From a phage: a stretch of DNA of 64,000 nt. Made by a program: the position numbers and the translations under genes. Position 1 is the first letter of the stretch. Each line of letters begins with the position of its first letter. The notes below the pieces were generated by a model, which did not search any database, had not been told where the DNA came from, and was given only the letters and a program-made list of their open reading frames with translations. Of this stretch, positions 7,069 to 62,276 are shown one piece after another. The DNA is taken from assembly GCA_021525805.1 (NCBI GenBank), contig GCA_021525805.1_3940.1. One strand, given 5' to 3'.

Positions 7069-15066
<7,998 letters not shown>

Positions 15067-15068
15067 TA

Positions 15069-16235
15069 ATGGCAGTAGGTGAAATTCAAATTAGTGCCTT
15101 GCCTCAAGCAGCCTTACCAATTGACCTTAGTGATATCTTCCATCTTAAGCAGGGTATTGAGGATAAGAGATGTACTCTTGAGCAACTACTTGCTCCACAC
15201 TCAAGCCTAAGAAATAACCCTCATGGTGTTACTAAGACACAAATTGGTTTAGATAACGTTATTAATGCTCTCCAGTTAGTTGCTGAAAATAACTTATCAG
15301 ATATTGTTAATGTAGCTGAGGCAAGAGCAAATCTACAGATTATGTCTTCAGAAGAGGTTAATAATCTTATCCAACAACATATTAATGATAAGAGTAACCC
15401 ACACAATACAACTAAGGCGCAGGTTGGTTTAAGTAATGTCCAGAACTGGACAACATCTAACCTTTATAATGAAGATGCAGATAAGTATGCTACAGCAAGA
15501 GCAGTAAATAACTTGTACAAGGCTGTTCAGGCTTCTTATCCAGTAGGTACTATCCATCTCTCTATGAATCCTGCAAACCCCTCTACATATTTAATTTGTG
15601 GAGGTACTTGGGAGTTAGTTTCAAAAGGAAGAGCACTTGTAGGTTATGATAGTGCTTCTAGGCCAGTTGGTTCAACGTTTGGTTCGCAGACTACTGCACT
15701 GACAGTTAACAACATTCCTGCACATACTCACTCAGTATACGTCACTGGTGGTGGTCACACACATGGTGCAACAATGTCTATTAGTTCCTTTGATTATGGT
15801 ACTAAGACAACATCTAGCTTTGACTATGGAACTAAAACCACTAACACGACTGGTGCTCACACCCACTCAGTGAGTGGCTCAACGAACACAACGGGTGCAC
15901 ATACACATGGTTATATTACTGGTTATCAATCAACAGGTGCATCTGGAGATTGGGACAGGGATGGTCACAGAAATACCGTACAAACGGATAGTGCTGGGAA
16001 TCACTCACACTCAGTAAGTGGTACTGCTGCATCAAATGGTGACCATGCTCACACTTTAAATATTGGTTCACACACCCATGTAATTAATATTGGTTCACAC
16101 ACTCACAGTGGCAGTGTGAGTATTTCAACAACAGAGCACTCACACTCTGGTACAACTGGTTCTACAGGTTCTGGACAAGCATTCAGTATTGAACAACCGT
16201 CCTTTGTCCTGTATGTATGGCAGAGAACAGCTTAA
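15069..16235 (+). CDS. Tail fibre protein (short) with His-rich HxH tip
   Basis: C-terminal HTHS/HTHG/HSHS/HAHT motifs; tip region shares two near-identical DNA blocks with the long fibre gene. Confidence 0.6.
   Translation: MAVGEIQISALPQAALPIDLSDIFHLKQGIEDKRCTLEQLLAPHSSLRNNPHGVTKTQIGLDNVINALQLVAENNLSDIVNVAEARANLQIMSSEEVNNLIQQHINDKSNPHNTTKAQVGLSNVQNWTTSNLYNEDADKYATARAVNNLYKAVQASYPVGTIHLSMNPANPSTYLICGGTWELVSKGRALVGYDSASRPVGSTFGSQTTALTVNNIPAHTHSVYVTGGGHTHGATMSISSFDYGTKTTSSFDYGTKTTNTTGAHTHSVSGSTNTTGAHTHGYITGYQSTGASGDWDRDGHRNTVQTDSAGNHSHSVSGTAASNGDHAHTLNIGSHTHVINIGSHTHSGSVSISTTEHSHSGTTGSTGSGQAFSIEQPSFVLYVWQRTA
15839..16053 (+). repeat. Fibre-tip duplication, copy 1
   Basis: Blocks 15839-15915 and 15948-16053 are near-identical to 18474-18550 and 18583-18688; the ~30 nt between them differs. 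Confidence 0.7.
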
Positions 16236-22087: not shown

Positions 22088-22417
22088 TTAATCTGCCAAC
22101 CTTAAATTGAAATTAACACCAAATTTTTCACATACTTCCAACATATACTCAAGGGAGACATTCCCAGTGAGGTGGATTATGTTGGATATACGAGCTTGAG
22201 AGATACCACAAATTTTAGCAACTTGCTCTTGAGAAAGACCTCTGGATTTAATCTCTCTCTTAAAACGATGTGCAACGAAATCTCTCATTTCGTCTACATC
22301 CATTGGACAAATATAACTCTCCATTTCAGCCTCTCTATCAGCCTCCCAATCATCTTGTGGAGCATAAGGGTCAAAAACCTCATTCATCTTTCTTCTTCCG
22401 TTTACGTGAAGTATCAA
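22088..22417 (-). CDS. Helix-turn-helix DNA-binding protein
   Basis: C-terminal HTH-like segment (LSQEQVAKICGISQARISNI). Confidence 0.45.
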   Translation of the reverse strand: MILHVNGRRKMNEVFDPYAPQDDWEADREAEMESYICPMDVDEMRDFVAHRFKREIKSRGLSQEQVAKICGISQARISNIIHLTGNVSLEYMLEVCEKFGVNFNLRLAD

Positions 22418-56609: not shown

Positions 56610-56626
56610 TAAGTAATTTCTTAAAA

Positions 56627-56650
56627 GGCTGCTTCGGCGGCCTTTTTTAT
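56627..56650 (+). terminator. Rho-independent terminator (UUCG tetraloop)
   Basis: ggctgc-ttcg-gcggcc followed by TTTTTT. Confidence 0.6.
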
Positions 56651-56678
56651 TTGTATTTTGTGCAGAGTGCTGTATAAT
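56651..56678 (+). promoter_or_regulatory. Candidate promoter
   Basis: TTGTAT, ~16 bp spacer, TATAAT upstream of 56710 gene. Confidence 0.35.
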
Positions 56679-58417: not shown

Positions 58418-58440
58418 AGGCTCCTTCGGGAGCCTTTTTC
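58418..58440 (+). terminator. Rho-independent terminator (UUCG tetraloop)
   Basis: ggctcc-ttcg-ggagcc followed by TTTTT. Confidence 0.6.
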
Positions 58441-59960: not shown

Positions 59961-60746
59961 ATGGGTATTGTAAAAATCATCAATGGTGATATCTTTGCTG
60001 CATTTGATAAAGGTAAGTTTGACATCATTGGTCACGGTTGTAATTGTATGAATTTAATGGGTGCAGGTATCGCTAACAAGATTTCTAAACTTTACCCAAA
60101 AGCATATGATACCGATACAGAAGTTTACCTATATGCAGGTGGCATAGGTCACAAACCCTGTGAAAATTTACTGGGTAATTTCTCTGTAGCACGTTTAGAA
60201 CAAGGCCGTATAGCTAACCTTTACACTCAGCTTAAGACTGGTAAAGATGCCCGATACAGTGCTTTAGAGTCATCTTTGAAGCAGCTTAACAGATACTGTG
60301 AAGTCAATCAGTTGAAGAAAGTCGGGTTACCTATGATTGGTGCAGGTATTGGTGGGCTAGACCCTCAAGCCGTCACAGTTATCATTAATCAGGTGATGAA
60401 GAGTGTAGATGTTTATCTGTATGTCTACGAAGGAGAGATGTACCACAAGTTATGCTCAGGTTGGAATAACTACTGTGAACCAGAATACTTTGCAGGTGTA
60501 GTTGTGTTCACAGATAATGCAGTTACCCTCTTCAGACGAAGAAAAGGTAAGATACATCAGAGTAACCCTCCGGTTGAAAAGATGTCTCTAAGTAACGCTC
60601 TAGTTACCCACCTGTCGAAGAGCAATCACAGGATTGCAGTAACATTTGGTAGTGATGCAGACACTTATATCTATGCAAGAACTGATGAGGATATCGAGAC
60701 AGTTTTCTCTTCTCCAGAAGTTACCTTCTTAGACGCAAAGAACTAA
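59961..60746 (+). CDS. Macro-domain-like protein with C-terminal extension (candidate)
   Basis: N-terminal GDIFAAF...DIIGHGCNCMNLMGAGIANKI and later GLPMIGAGIGGLDP, resembling macro-domain ADP-ribose-binding glycine-rich loops. Confidence 0.4.
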   Translation: MGIVKIINGDIFAAFDKGKFDIIGHGCNCMNLMGAGIANKISKLYPKAYDTDTEVYLYAGGIGHKPCENLLGNFSVARLEQGRIANLYTQLKTGKDARYSALESSLKQLNRYCEVNQLKKVGLPMIGAGIGGLDPQAVTVIINQVMKSVDVYLYVYEGEMYHKLCSGWNNYCEPEYFAGVVVFTDNAVTLFRRRKGKIHQSNPPVEKMSLSNALVTHLSKSNHRIAVTFGSDADTYIYARTDEDIETVFSSPEVTFLDAKN

Positions 60747-60796
60747 GAAACTCTGTAGTATATTCACAATAGACTAAGCCTTTCTTATCTGGTAAA

Positions 60797-61020
60797 TTTT
60801 TCAGGTAAGGAGGGCTTTTTCATTTCAGATTTGTGCAGGTAGAGTTCTGTAGAGAAATCTATAGAGAAAATTTTGAACTCCAAAGAGAAAATTCATTTTC
60901 AAACTGTGCAGGTAATCTCCAAAGAGCTTTTTCATTTTCAAAACGTGCAGACCCCGCTCAGGTCGGGCAAGAAAAATCATTTTAGAATTGTGCAGGTAGG
61001 TGGGTGTAGGTGGGGATGTC
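60797..61020. repeat. Iteron-like array of short direct repeats in non-coding region
   Basis: Four copies of TCATTT(T)CAAANYGTGCAGGTA-like 22-mer, three AGAGAAA(A/T) copies, two CTCCAAAGAG copies, two GTAGGTGGG copies. Confidence 0.6.
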
Positions 61021-61178
61021 GCCATTTCTCACAAGGCTACCACATCTGAAAATAAAAGTCAACAGAAAAATTTGTAGCGGATTGAAAAATTATTCTTGAT
61101 TGTAGTTCTGTTTTGTGGTAGTCGCGCGCACACCCGTTCATTTCCCAACCTTACAAAAAAAATATTTAATAAAAACCG

Positions 61179-61207
61179 TTGACACGCCAAACAAGTTGAC
61201 GTACTAT
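61179..61207 (+). promoter_or_regulatory. Sigma70-like early promoter
   Basis: TTGACA, 17 bp, TACTAT preceded by A/T-rich tract; drives first small gene. Confidence 0.6.
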
Positions 61208-61256
61208 CTGCATCAGACGGGCAAGCAAGCCCACTTCCTAAACTGGAGAATCGAAA

Positions 61257-61463
61257 ATGCTTTATAGTCGTGAATTGATGGTTACAACTAACGTTAACAC
61301 AAAGGTAAAACGTTTTTACATGCAAGTATGTGGCGCATGGTCCAGAATATCAGAAGCTGACTACTGCAACTATGTAGAAACGGCTATTAATTCTAATTGC
61401 TACCTTACAAGAAATACAAGAAAGCACATAAGACAGACAGCAATTTACTACTACGATAGATAA
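61257..61463 (+). CDS. Small early protein
   Basis: 68 aa; conserved leader ctaaactggaga...aaaatg upstream. Confidence 0.4.
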   Translation: MLYSRELMVTTNVNTKVKRFYMQVCGAWSRISEADYCNYVETAINSNCYLTRNTRKHIRQTAIYYYDR

Positions 61464-61468
61464 AGTAC

Positions 61469-61504
61469 TTTACAAGGGGCTTATAGTTCGATAAAGTAAG
61501 CCCC
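61469..61504 (+). promoter_or_regulatory. Promoter-hairpin cassette R1
   Basis: TTTACA, 17 bp, TAAAGT overlapping hairpin ggggctta/taagcccc, then conserved leader and RBS. Confidence 0.5.
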
Positions 61505-61549
61505 AGATAAAGAGCTTTACTAACTAACCTTAAACTAGGAGATTCAAAA

Positions 61550-61930
61550 ATGGCTTATCGTGCACCTAAATTCATCAACAAAGGCAACTTTCGCAACGCA
61601 CTGGAGAAGTCACTTGATGAAAATTTTAAAGGTAATATTATCGTTGTTCACGCATTCAATTTTAAGTATGATGTAAACGGGAATAGAATCAACCATTACA
61701 CGGCAACCATGTTAGATGGTACTCTTTCAAGTGAAAAAGCCGTACTGAATGCACTGGCAGGACGCGGAAAAGTATTAGTAAGATGCGATAAGAGACGTTA
61801 TCAGGGCGGCGCATATGGTTACGATGATGCTGTTTACCATCTTGAAAATATGGGCTATTCAGTGGAAAAAGCTGGAGTGTCTCAAATAATCGGCAGTGAC
61901 GGCTATGTGACAATTTTCAAAATTAACTGA
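61550..61930 (+). CDS. Small early protein
   Basis: 126 aa behind cassette R1. Confidence 0.4.
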   Translation: MAYRAPKFINKGNFRNALEKSLDENFKGNIIVVHAFNFKYDVNGNRINHYTATMLDGTLSSEKAVLNALAGRGKVLVRCDKRRYQGGAYGYDDAVYHLENMGYSVEKAGVSQIIGSDGYVTIFKIN

Positions 61931-62018: not shown

Positions 62019-62276
62019 ATGGCTATTATCAAAAACGTTGTAGTTCCTGCAAAAACTCGTGATGACGCTCGCATCATGGCGAAAAAGGTAGGTGGGAAAG
62101 TGATTGACAATGGAAAACAATCTGCTGTAAGATGGGGCGTGAAGGCTGATAAACAACTAACCTTAAAACGCAGTTCAGACAATCTTTTTAAAGGTGTAAA
62201 ATCACTCGGTAAAGTTAACGTCTTTACCAAAAAAGGCTATAAAATGCACTTATCATTAACTGGCAATTTAATCTGA
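62019..62276 (+). CDS. Small early protein
   Basis: 85 aa behind cassette R2. Confidence 0.4.
   Translation: MAIIKNVVVPAKTRDDARIMAKKVGGKVIDNGKQSAVRWGVKADKQLTLKRSSDNLFKGVKSLGKVNVFTKKGYKMHLSLTGNLI

Follow-up and report, generated by a model that had tools for sequence, protein, structure and literature searches.

We analyzed a 64,000-nucleotide stretch of phage DNA (the window; GenBank assembly GCA_021525805.1, contig GCA_021525805.1_3940.1) from a Felix O1-type myovirus (Ounavirinae, Felixounavirus). Within it, a 510-bp gap between two plus-strand genes (positions 60747–61256) holds an array of four short, co-oriented repeats, and a solitary fifth copy lies in a predicted promoter behind the rIIB gene. 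The array is the most conserved non-coding element seen in the locus and outlasts the alignability of the DNA around it. We favor, tentatively, a reading in which these repeats are binding sites for a sequence-specific DNA-binding regulator and form a transcriptional control or insulator hub at the boundary between temporal classes of genes. No earlier description of the array was found in the literature searched.

Architecture and conservation of the repeat array

The four cores all read TCATTT-N7-GTGCA on the plus strand and lie at 60820–60837, 60893–60910, 60932–60949, and 60977–60994, with start-to-start distances of 73, 39, and 45 nt. The locus had been singled out in a prediction made from the letters of the window (the original prediction), and the repeats it listed are all present; its main pattern has three matches with up to three mismatches, against 0.03 expected, and none elsewhere in the 64 kb. 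Several of its details required revision. The pattern had been written with an optional extra T, whereas every copy has a fixed length of 18 nt; copy 3, to which a GGTA end had been ascribed, actually ends in GTGCAGACC; and the short repeat it described exists as part of a longer unit of about 34 nt, RGAGRG-M-W4-TCATTT-YMRAWTY-GTGCA-KRTA, in which a pure A- or T-tract (W4) precedes every core.

We scored the individual units with a position weight matrix (PWM) trained on non-Felixounavirus arrays only and scanned over the 87.7-kb genome of phage Barry, so that the values given here are those of the Barry homologues. Unit 1 (60808–60841, plus strand as are the others; core TCATTT-cagattt-GTGCA; 42.7 bits) is fused to the 3′ arm and T-tract of an intrinsic terminator. 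Unit 2 (60881–60914; 41.0 bits), with an A-tract 5′ of its core, is the one deleted in three-copy variants of the BPS17L1 and Si3 types. Unit 3 (60920–60953; 35.2 bits) has a T-tract and the 3′ flank GACC, not GGTA, and unit 4 (60965–60998; 29.6 bits) again has an A-tract. The 3′ flank of the core occurs in two forms, GTGCAGGTA and GTGCATAG. A CTC-CAAA-GAG mini-hairpin opens units 2 and 3, ahead of a T-run or an A-run, and each unit is similar in its 5′ part to the AGATAAAGAGCTTT segment of intergenic modules farther downstream among the early genes. Judged from the spacing, the array resembles a ~38-bp tandem in which one slot has decayed. A repeat search gave no significant inverted repeats in it. 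Among the shorter repeats, CTCCAAAGAG has two copies, both in the array gap (0.18 expected), and GTAGGTGGG forms a tandem pair in the gap with one further copy at 62088 (0.14 expected). AGAGAAAW occurs three times within 41 bp of the gap, but with 18 copies in the whole window against 10.8 expected it is common genome-wide and weak evidence alone.

When positions 60500–61600 were compared with phage records, 244 matched, typically at 90–95% identity, and the gap after the left-hand, macro-domain gene proved syntenic in Felixouna-, Moogle-, Susp-, and Kolesnikviruses. The repeats are not low complexity, the alternative that the original prediction had named. In 17 genomes from these four genera, selected by BLAST alone, identity averages 94% in the core columns and 75% in the other array columns, and of 20,000 masks placed at random none reached the value of the core. 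Both half-sites are invariant in all copies of alignment A1, while the spacers diverge and contain 2-nt and 4-nt indels; in the most distant BLAST matches the alignable stretch runs from copy 2 to copy 4 only. The 33 distinct arrays share one orientation and, save for a few three-copy variants without copy 2, the same copy number. Their spacing, described earlier as irregular, is indeed unequal but is conserved within each genus (Felixounavirus, 73/39/45; Mooglevirus, 75/41/45; Kolesnikvirus, 37/37/39). The original prediction hinged in part on conservation in relatives, and copy number, orientation, and core sequence are kept subfamily-wide.

The array also persists where its surroundings do not. 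In the uncultured relative L042 (IMGVR_UViG_3300045988_063805, an 88,375-bp contig to which none of 50,697 phage records is closely related), four to five units lie directly 3′ of the macro gene; the flanking proteins are 30–41% identical to Barry's, and the intergenic DNA cannot be aligned to that of Barry, yet the array is retained. Synteny of macro gene and array is kept in the four genera and in L042. This contig is syntenic with the Ounavirinae over the rIIB-to-macro region, at the same 30–41% protein identity, and probably represents a new deep lineage of the Ounavirinae group. A two-core scan of IMG/VR returned 43 loci, 13 of them without BLAST similarity to the region. We rejected 11 of the 13 as coding tandem repeats in large open reading frames (ORFs) that match by coincidence; L055, also among the 13, contains a non-coding pair of copies, but its surroundings are unrelated, and L042 proved to be the distant relative described above. 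No match to the array was found in the E. coli chromosomes and plasmids searched. In one further locus (L038) the DNA from 4430 on, after copy 3, is GC-rich and unlike any relative, and is either an insertion or the product of a chimeric metagenomic contig.

Protein-coding repeats were rejected, as eight genomes show 4–23 stops in every frame and copies are separated by indels that do not come in multiples of 3. Public records nevertheless carry differing "hypothetical proteins" of 30–100 aa, on either strand and at inconsistent positions, across 60785–61141 and the homologous gaps (inconsistent ORF calls in L002, L003, L005, L006, L007, L013, L059, L062, L063, and L064), and these annotations are almost certainly spurious.

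A function at the level of RNA, as a non-coding RNA or as repeated protein-binding sites on read-through transcripts, is the least probable of the explanations that we considered. The plus strand of 60770–61060 folds better than shuffled controls (z = −4.1), and the region lies 3′ of an imperfect terminator, so that it may be partly transcribed. However, the folding excess is due to the terminator hairpin and a lineage-specific stem. RNAalifold across nine sequences recovers the terminator hairpin alone as structured RNA, with no conserved pairs in the array; a search of the region against Rfam gave chance-level matches only (E of at least 0.14), and a structured RNA or known RNA family was rejected. 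The promoter scan placed none within the region for either strand, and the solitary copy lies 5′ of the start site of its promoter, outside that transcript. Among arrays the W4 tract alternates between all-A and all-T, an interchange that is symmetric in duplex DNA but not in RNA, which implies a constraint on the duplex rather than on a transcript.

The terminator itself (60776–60826, plus strand) was found by a terminator scan and consists of a 17-bp hairpin with G·U wobbles (60776–60817) and a T-tract that runs straight into core 1. The G+C-containing hairpin and its U-tract are supported by covariation, with compensatory changes at two pairs and several UG/CG switches across genera in RNAalifold, and the element is annotated as a terminator in phage Barry. 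A third terminator, at 58418–58435 (AGGCTCCTTCGGGAGCCT), is followed by TTTTCATTTC (to 58445), which equals the tail of copy 1; it has no GTGCA, and its PWM score is at background. This tail makes TCATTT a common terminator tail in the genome (e.g., at 58436).

Such tails raise an explanation in which the units would be vestigial or functional duplicates of a module of 3′ arm, T-tract, and downstream DNA, kept for reinforcing termination or insulation without a dedicated binder. Copy 1 and the solitary site do sit on genuine terminator T-tracts in the same register, mini-hairpins open units 2 and 3, and the unit 5′ parts and the TTTTCATTTC tail recur as described above. We consider this account improbable, since copies 2–4 are without a stable hairpin or any conserved structure, half of the units have an A-tract where a U-tract is needed, and the 58418 terminator does without the second half-site. 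Moreover, GTGCA is invariant 13 nt 3′ of TCATTT, beyond what a terminator needs, and is kept at 30–41% protein divergence.

A fifth site and the temporal boundary

In the PWM scan, Barry's four copies scored 30–43 bits and a fifth site 23.3 bits; every other position scored at most 7.4 bits, and the random-genome maximum was 11.5 bits. The fifth unit in the window (56635–56678, plus strand; core TTATTT-gtatttt-GTGCA at 56647–56664) abuts the rIIB terminator (56623–56646) in the register seen in copy 1 (G/C clamp-TTTT-TYATTT). It lies inside a predicted promoter, TTGTAT-16-TATAAT, with the −35 element at 56651–56656 and the −10 element at 56673–56678, so that the core spans about −38 to −21 and overlaps the −35 and the spacer. 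The layout is TTATTT-N7-GTGCAG-N5-TGTATAAT, with TGTATAAT invariant and the linkers variable; the GTGCA half falls in the promoter spacer, where sigma-70 makes no sequence demand. The site is conserved in Felixounaviruses, Moogleviruses, and the divergent Felixounavirus-like loci L034 and L040, and the Mooglevirus promoter (TTGAAA-16-TATAAT) matches the sigma-70 consensus at 11 of 12 positions. The operon that follows encodes a secreted SLT-like protein (weak SLT match), a polynucleotide kinase, and a 154-aa protein without assigned function. At the matching distance from the array copies there is no −10 element, which rules them out as sigma-70 promoters; a dispersed phage-specific promoter or terminator motif is ruled out by the count of only five sites per genome.

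The macro gene is the last gene of the rII-to-macro transcription unit, 5′ of the array. On the other side, a predicted strong sigma-70-type promoter (61179–61207, plus strand; TTGACA-17-TACTAT, 10/12 in the scan) heads the right-terminal small early genes. This promoter and the A/T-rich tract upstream of it had been part of the original prediction and are borne out by the scan and legible in the sequence, respectively; TTGAC and TAnTAT are invariant in three genera (alignment A1). The array lies 180–360 bp 5′ of this strongest early promoter, the last core being about 180 bp away.

Published reverse transcription PCR (RT-PCR) data for Felix O1 place the peak of genes 13, 16, 20, 21, and 22 at 5 min, of genes 2, 5, 9, and 12 at 10 min, and of genes 1, 3, 4, 6, and 10 at 25 min. 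Gene 1 corresponds to rIIA, and gene 23 closes the plus-strand unit (PMC3185647). By gene order, genes ~12–23 would correspond to the terminal block of small genes. On these published data a temporal-class boundary falls at the array, with later-expressed genes upstream and 5-min genes downstream. The Felix O1 genome paper stated that the mechanism of temporal regulation was not known (PMC3185647). The core of the original prediction, protein-binding repeats of the iteron or operator kind that mark a module boundary ahead of an early gene cluster, is supported by the conserved repeats, the conserved promoter, and this RT-PCR boundary.

The asymmetric core, the shape-type flanks, the uniqueness of the sites, the promoter-embedded partner, the fusion to a terminator, and the position at the boundary together argue for a DNA-binding regulator. 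From these features we infer binding by a protein, what that protein may be, the sign that regulation may have, and a putative insulator role, as follows. The four cis sites (five in some lineages) would be bound by one protein, probably encoded by the phage. It would contact two half-sites, GTGCA starting 13 bp after the start of TCATTT; this offset is about one helical turn and would place them on about the same face of the helix. The pure A- or T-tract beside each site points to a contribution of DNA shape or bending, and the asymmetric, co-oriented sites suggest binding as monomers or head-to-tail oligomers rather than as a symmetric dimer. When occupied, the array would separate the rII-to-macro unit from the early unit by a nucleoprotein block, stopping read-through RNA polymerase as an insulator or roadblock and/or modulating the early promoter at a distance. 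At the fifth site the same protein would cover the −35 and spacer and set the delayed expression of genes 3 and 4. We lean towards a block or insulator at the array and operator action at the solitary site.

Proposed regulator sites weighed against known systems and other roles

As in an operator array, the motif is conserved above its surroundings and one site, the solitary one, overlaps a core promoter. Several observations weigh against a regulator. The 180–360 bp between the array and its candidate target promoter is unusual for a simple operator, and five sites per genome make a narrow regulon. TCATTT being a common terminator tail, part of the motif could stem from terminator duplication. 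PhageMaP in phage Bas63 targeted genes only. Among 20 neighboring and replication-cluster proteins, Pfam and PHROG detected only the macro domain, the polynucleotide kinase, the weak SLT match, and one XRE-type helix-turn-helix (HTH) protein. The last of these (22088–22417, minus strand; Pfam HTH_3, E = 2.8e-10) is called a "putative transcriptional regulator" in relatives and is the only recognizable sequence-specific DNA-binding candidate. It is a poor fit, with no evidence tying it to the motif, because XRE proteins usually bind dyad-symmetric sites and the motif is asymmetric.

Host factors offered no better match. Kolesnikvirus cores (TGTGCATAG) match the DnaA box TGTGCATAA at 8 of 9 positions, but those of Felixouna- and Moogleviruses match at only 6 of 9, so that DnaA was rejected as a common ligand. 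Consensus sequences for IHF, Fis, CRP, OmpR, the marbox, sigma-54, sigma-E, and RfaH ops, compared by eye, do not fit the invariant positions; for the marbox the spacing is off by one.

Multi-site arrays of phage regulators include the four p4 sites of phi29, placed between its early promoters A2c/A2b and its late promoter A3, and the operator triplets of lambda OR and OL. The present array resembles them in having several copies of a short motif in a gene-free few hundred base pairs between differently timed units, in its association with A-tract or bent DNA, and in the overlap of one site, here the solitary one, with a core promoter. Unlike them, its motif is asymmetric and co-oriented, it lies 180–360 bp from the nearest promoter, and copy 1 is fused to a terminator. 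Bipartite 18-bp activator boxes that replace or overlap the −35 are also known, namely the pho box (bound by tandem winged-helix proteins of the PhoB/OmpR type) and the T4 MotA box of middle promoters. The solitary site is likewise asymmetric and bipartite, its 18 bp stopping about 8 nt short of a perfect −10, and in Felixounaviruses its promoter has a weak −35 (TTGTAT) and drives genes of the 25-min class. However, neither of its half-sites repeats the other, the box is borne by a single promoter in the genome, and with the near-consensus −35 of Moogleviruses (TTGAAA) a dependence on an activator is not evident. Pfam and PHROG detected nothing PhoB/OmpR-like or MotA-like among the 20 proteins searched.

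The other function proposed by the original prediction was a replication origin. The repeats would in that case be iterons for a phage initiator, with melting at the A/T tract or priming by the adjacent promoter, as at the T7 primary origin and T4 oriF/oriG. Iteron origins are known from lambda ori, with four 19-bp O-protein sites and A-tract bends, and from plasmids F, P1, R6K, RK2, and pPS10. The array shares with them at least three direct repeats of the ~17–22-bp class in one orientation (here four 18-bp cores on the plus strand), and its bipartite repeats with their flanking A/T tracts are similar in form to the sites of two-domain Rep-type initiators. Less than 200 bp away are an A/T-rich tract and a strong promoter, a strand-asymmetric, G-quadruplex-capable (G4-capable) tract adjoins the array, the locus is unique in the genome, its subfamily-wide conservation is as expected of an essential cis site, and no mapped origin for this phage group was found in the literature searched. 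We nevertheless regard an origin as unlikely, though it deserves more consideration than the other alternatives. No initiator-like or winged-helix protein was found beside the array, which also lacks an enclosing initiator gene, or in the replication cluster (Pfam and PHROG, with which remote homologues could be missed). The spacing of 37–75 bp is non-contiguous, out of helical phase, and genus-dependent, whereas iterons form contiguous repeats of ~21–23 bp. The array appears to have no AT-rich unwinding element directly beside it, the only strong A/T tract being 150 bp beyond the last repeat and coinciding with the place of an UP element. The GC skew, in itself uninformative as to where replication starts, tracks gene orientation without an inflection at the locus, and the array is on no plasmid or E. 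coli chromosome searched. Finally, the sole extra site lies at the promoter of the SLT-like protein and polynucleotide kinase and is predicted to regulate these non-replication genes; the classic layout of iterons and autoregulated rep is missing because the fifth site does not serve an initiator. Of the two functions first proposed, "origin or control hub", the hub fits better, given the lack of a recognizable initiator gene, the distant A/T tract, the unphased spacing, a skew without inflection, and the promoter-embedded extra site, and no computed result favors the origin.

The position of the array relative to the genome end invites comparison with DNA entry in T5, whose first-step-transfer segment is the terminal 7.9% of the genome and ends at a conserved, repeat-rich untranslated region, the iss (bioRxiv 10.1101/866236). 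Direct terminal repeats (DTRs) in this group measure 608 bp in UAB_Phi87, by Bal31 digestion and run-off sequencing (PMC4837284), and 581 bp in Pr103Blw, by PhageTerm (PMC8303462). The similar size of the gap had suggested that it might itself be a genome terminus or DTR, which we rejected since the DTR maps ~6.7 kb further right. The 88,421-bp Pr103Blw record contains both DTR copies, identical over 581 bp, and its cores lie 6.7–6.9 kb (7.6–7.8% of the genome) inside the right physical end; in Barry coordinates the DTR is at 14,492–15,092 and the array at 7,774–7,964. The ends of the UAB_Phi87 record are arbitrary, within a tRNA cluster, and are not usable. The DTR has its own motif family, YTGTTAAG/TTAACA, distinct from the array motif. 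The Pr103Blw DTR corresponds to L012 1–581 and L013 11842–12422, and its equivalent lies just past the right edge of the window; it consists largely of many YTGTTA(A/G)/CTGTAAAG-type motifs (about two dozen by eye), with three TTAACA at its left edge. A TTAACA-rich tract also directly follows the array in L042 (minus strand, 760–620).

A T5-like checkpoint would have the right end enter first and its ~6.5-kb early block be expressed, the repeats pausing or anchoring the DNA until release. We consider this very unlikely; a more specific version, an independently evolved two-step transfer in which the right-terminal 7–8% enters and pauses at the repeats until an early product releases it, appears unlikelier still. 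The cores do lie at T5-like distance from the end of the Pr103Blw genome, bounding small early genes, and, like the iss, the untranslated repeats are better kept than the neighboring small genes. The terminal block consists of small genes without assigned function, each with a sigma-70-like promoter and several of the earliest RT-PCR class; the layout in Kolesnikvirus Hena2 is similar, and the DnaA-box resemblance of the Kolesnikvirus cores would also fit. Against this, two-step transfer has never been reported for the group in the literature searched, and the array lies outside any long terminal repeat, 6 kb from a DTR of 581–608 bp where T5 has a 10-kb terminal repeat. The array has no T5-type inverted repeats or palindromes, nor the DnaA-box pairs, the box match dropping to 6 of 9 outside Kolesnikviruses. 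The A1/A2 genes are missing: no PHROG functional annotation was found for any terminal-block protein, and relatives of T5 A1/A2/dmp would be expected to carry one. Replication genes far from the right end are also expressed at 5 min, and the solitary promoter-embedded site is left unexplained. We treat the T5 parallel as one of architecture only.

Other elements of the gap and significance

Between the array and the early promoter lie further elements. A strand-asymmetric purine/pyrimidine tract (60999–61056; alignments A1 and A2) is G-rich on the plus strand here and C-rich in most relatives, with 21 distinct C-rich forms (G-quadruplex-capable on the minus strand) and 12 distinct G-rich forms including that of the window. 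A local inversion of this tract is possible, but the evidence was too weak for us to accept it. A minus-strand promoter (TTGACT) feeding an R-loop was also rejected, since its −10 is poor and the varying G-rich strand between lineages is inconsistent with it. A conserved non-coding block follows at 61057–61115, AAAAGTCAA(C/G)AGAAAAATTTGTAGCGGA..AATTATTCTTGA..TTCTGTTTT, with column identity of 0.72–0.88 per 10-nt bin; it is present in Felixouna-, Susp-, and Moogleviruses and not in Kolesnikviruses. The A/T-rich tract (61145–61178, plus strand), immediately 5′ of the −35 and kept in alignment A1, is from its position a putative UP element. Downstream of the promoter, a 5′-UTR (untranslated region) hairpin, GGGC-AAGCAA-GCCC (61218–61231, plus strand), was read from alignment A1; relatives keep a hairpin with different stem sequences, and it may be an mRNA-stabilizing stem.

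The gap is flanked on the left by the macro-domain ("phosphatase") gene (59961–60746, plus strand; Pfam Macro, E = 1.1e-7) and on the right by a 68-codon gene (61257–61463, plus strand). GTGCAGGTA, a 3′ half-site with its flank, occurs six times in the window (0.34 expected), twice of these inside the macro gene (60061–60069 and 60340–60348) and both times without a TCATTT partner; the copy at 60340 lies in codons ...IGAGIGG..., probably a glycine-rich loop, and may be a coincidence.

The terminal block is dense in sigma-70-like promoters, each small early gene having its own (e.g., TTTACA-17-TAAAGT). The early intergenic modules lie at 61464–61549 and then at ~61939, 62285, 62887, 63589, and 63959, and correspond to the 57-bp repeats of the Felix O1 paper (PMC3185647). 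The 61464–61549 module contains a dyad, GGGGCTTA-N13-TAAGCCCC, that encloses the spacer and −10 and has AGATAAAGAGCTTTAC after it; the dyad was read in this module only, the others being promoter-scan matches. The modules have the look of dimeric-repressor operators, and the XRE protein may naturally act on them.

Felix O1 is a classic Salmonella typing and biocontrol phage, and its relatives, Bas63 among them, are under development as models and for therapy. Recognition of the array should end the spurious calling of 50–90-aa "hypothetical proteins" across this gap. Together with its single promoter partner, the array offers an 18-bp bait with which a regulator or initiator could be pulled down, and it is small enough to be deleted or scrambled.

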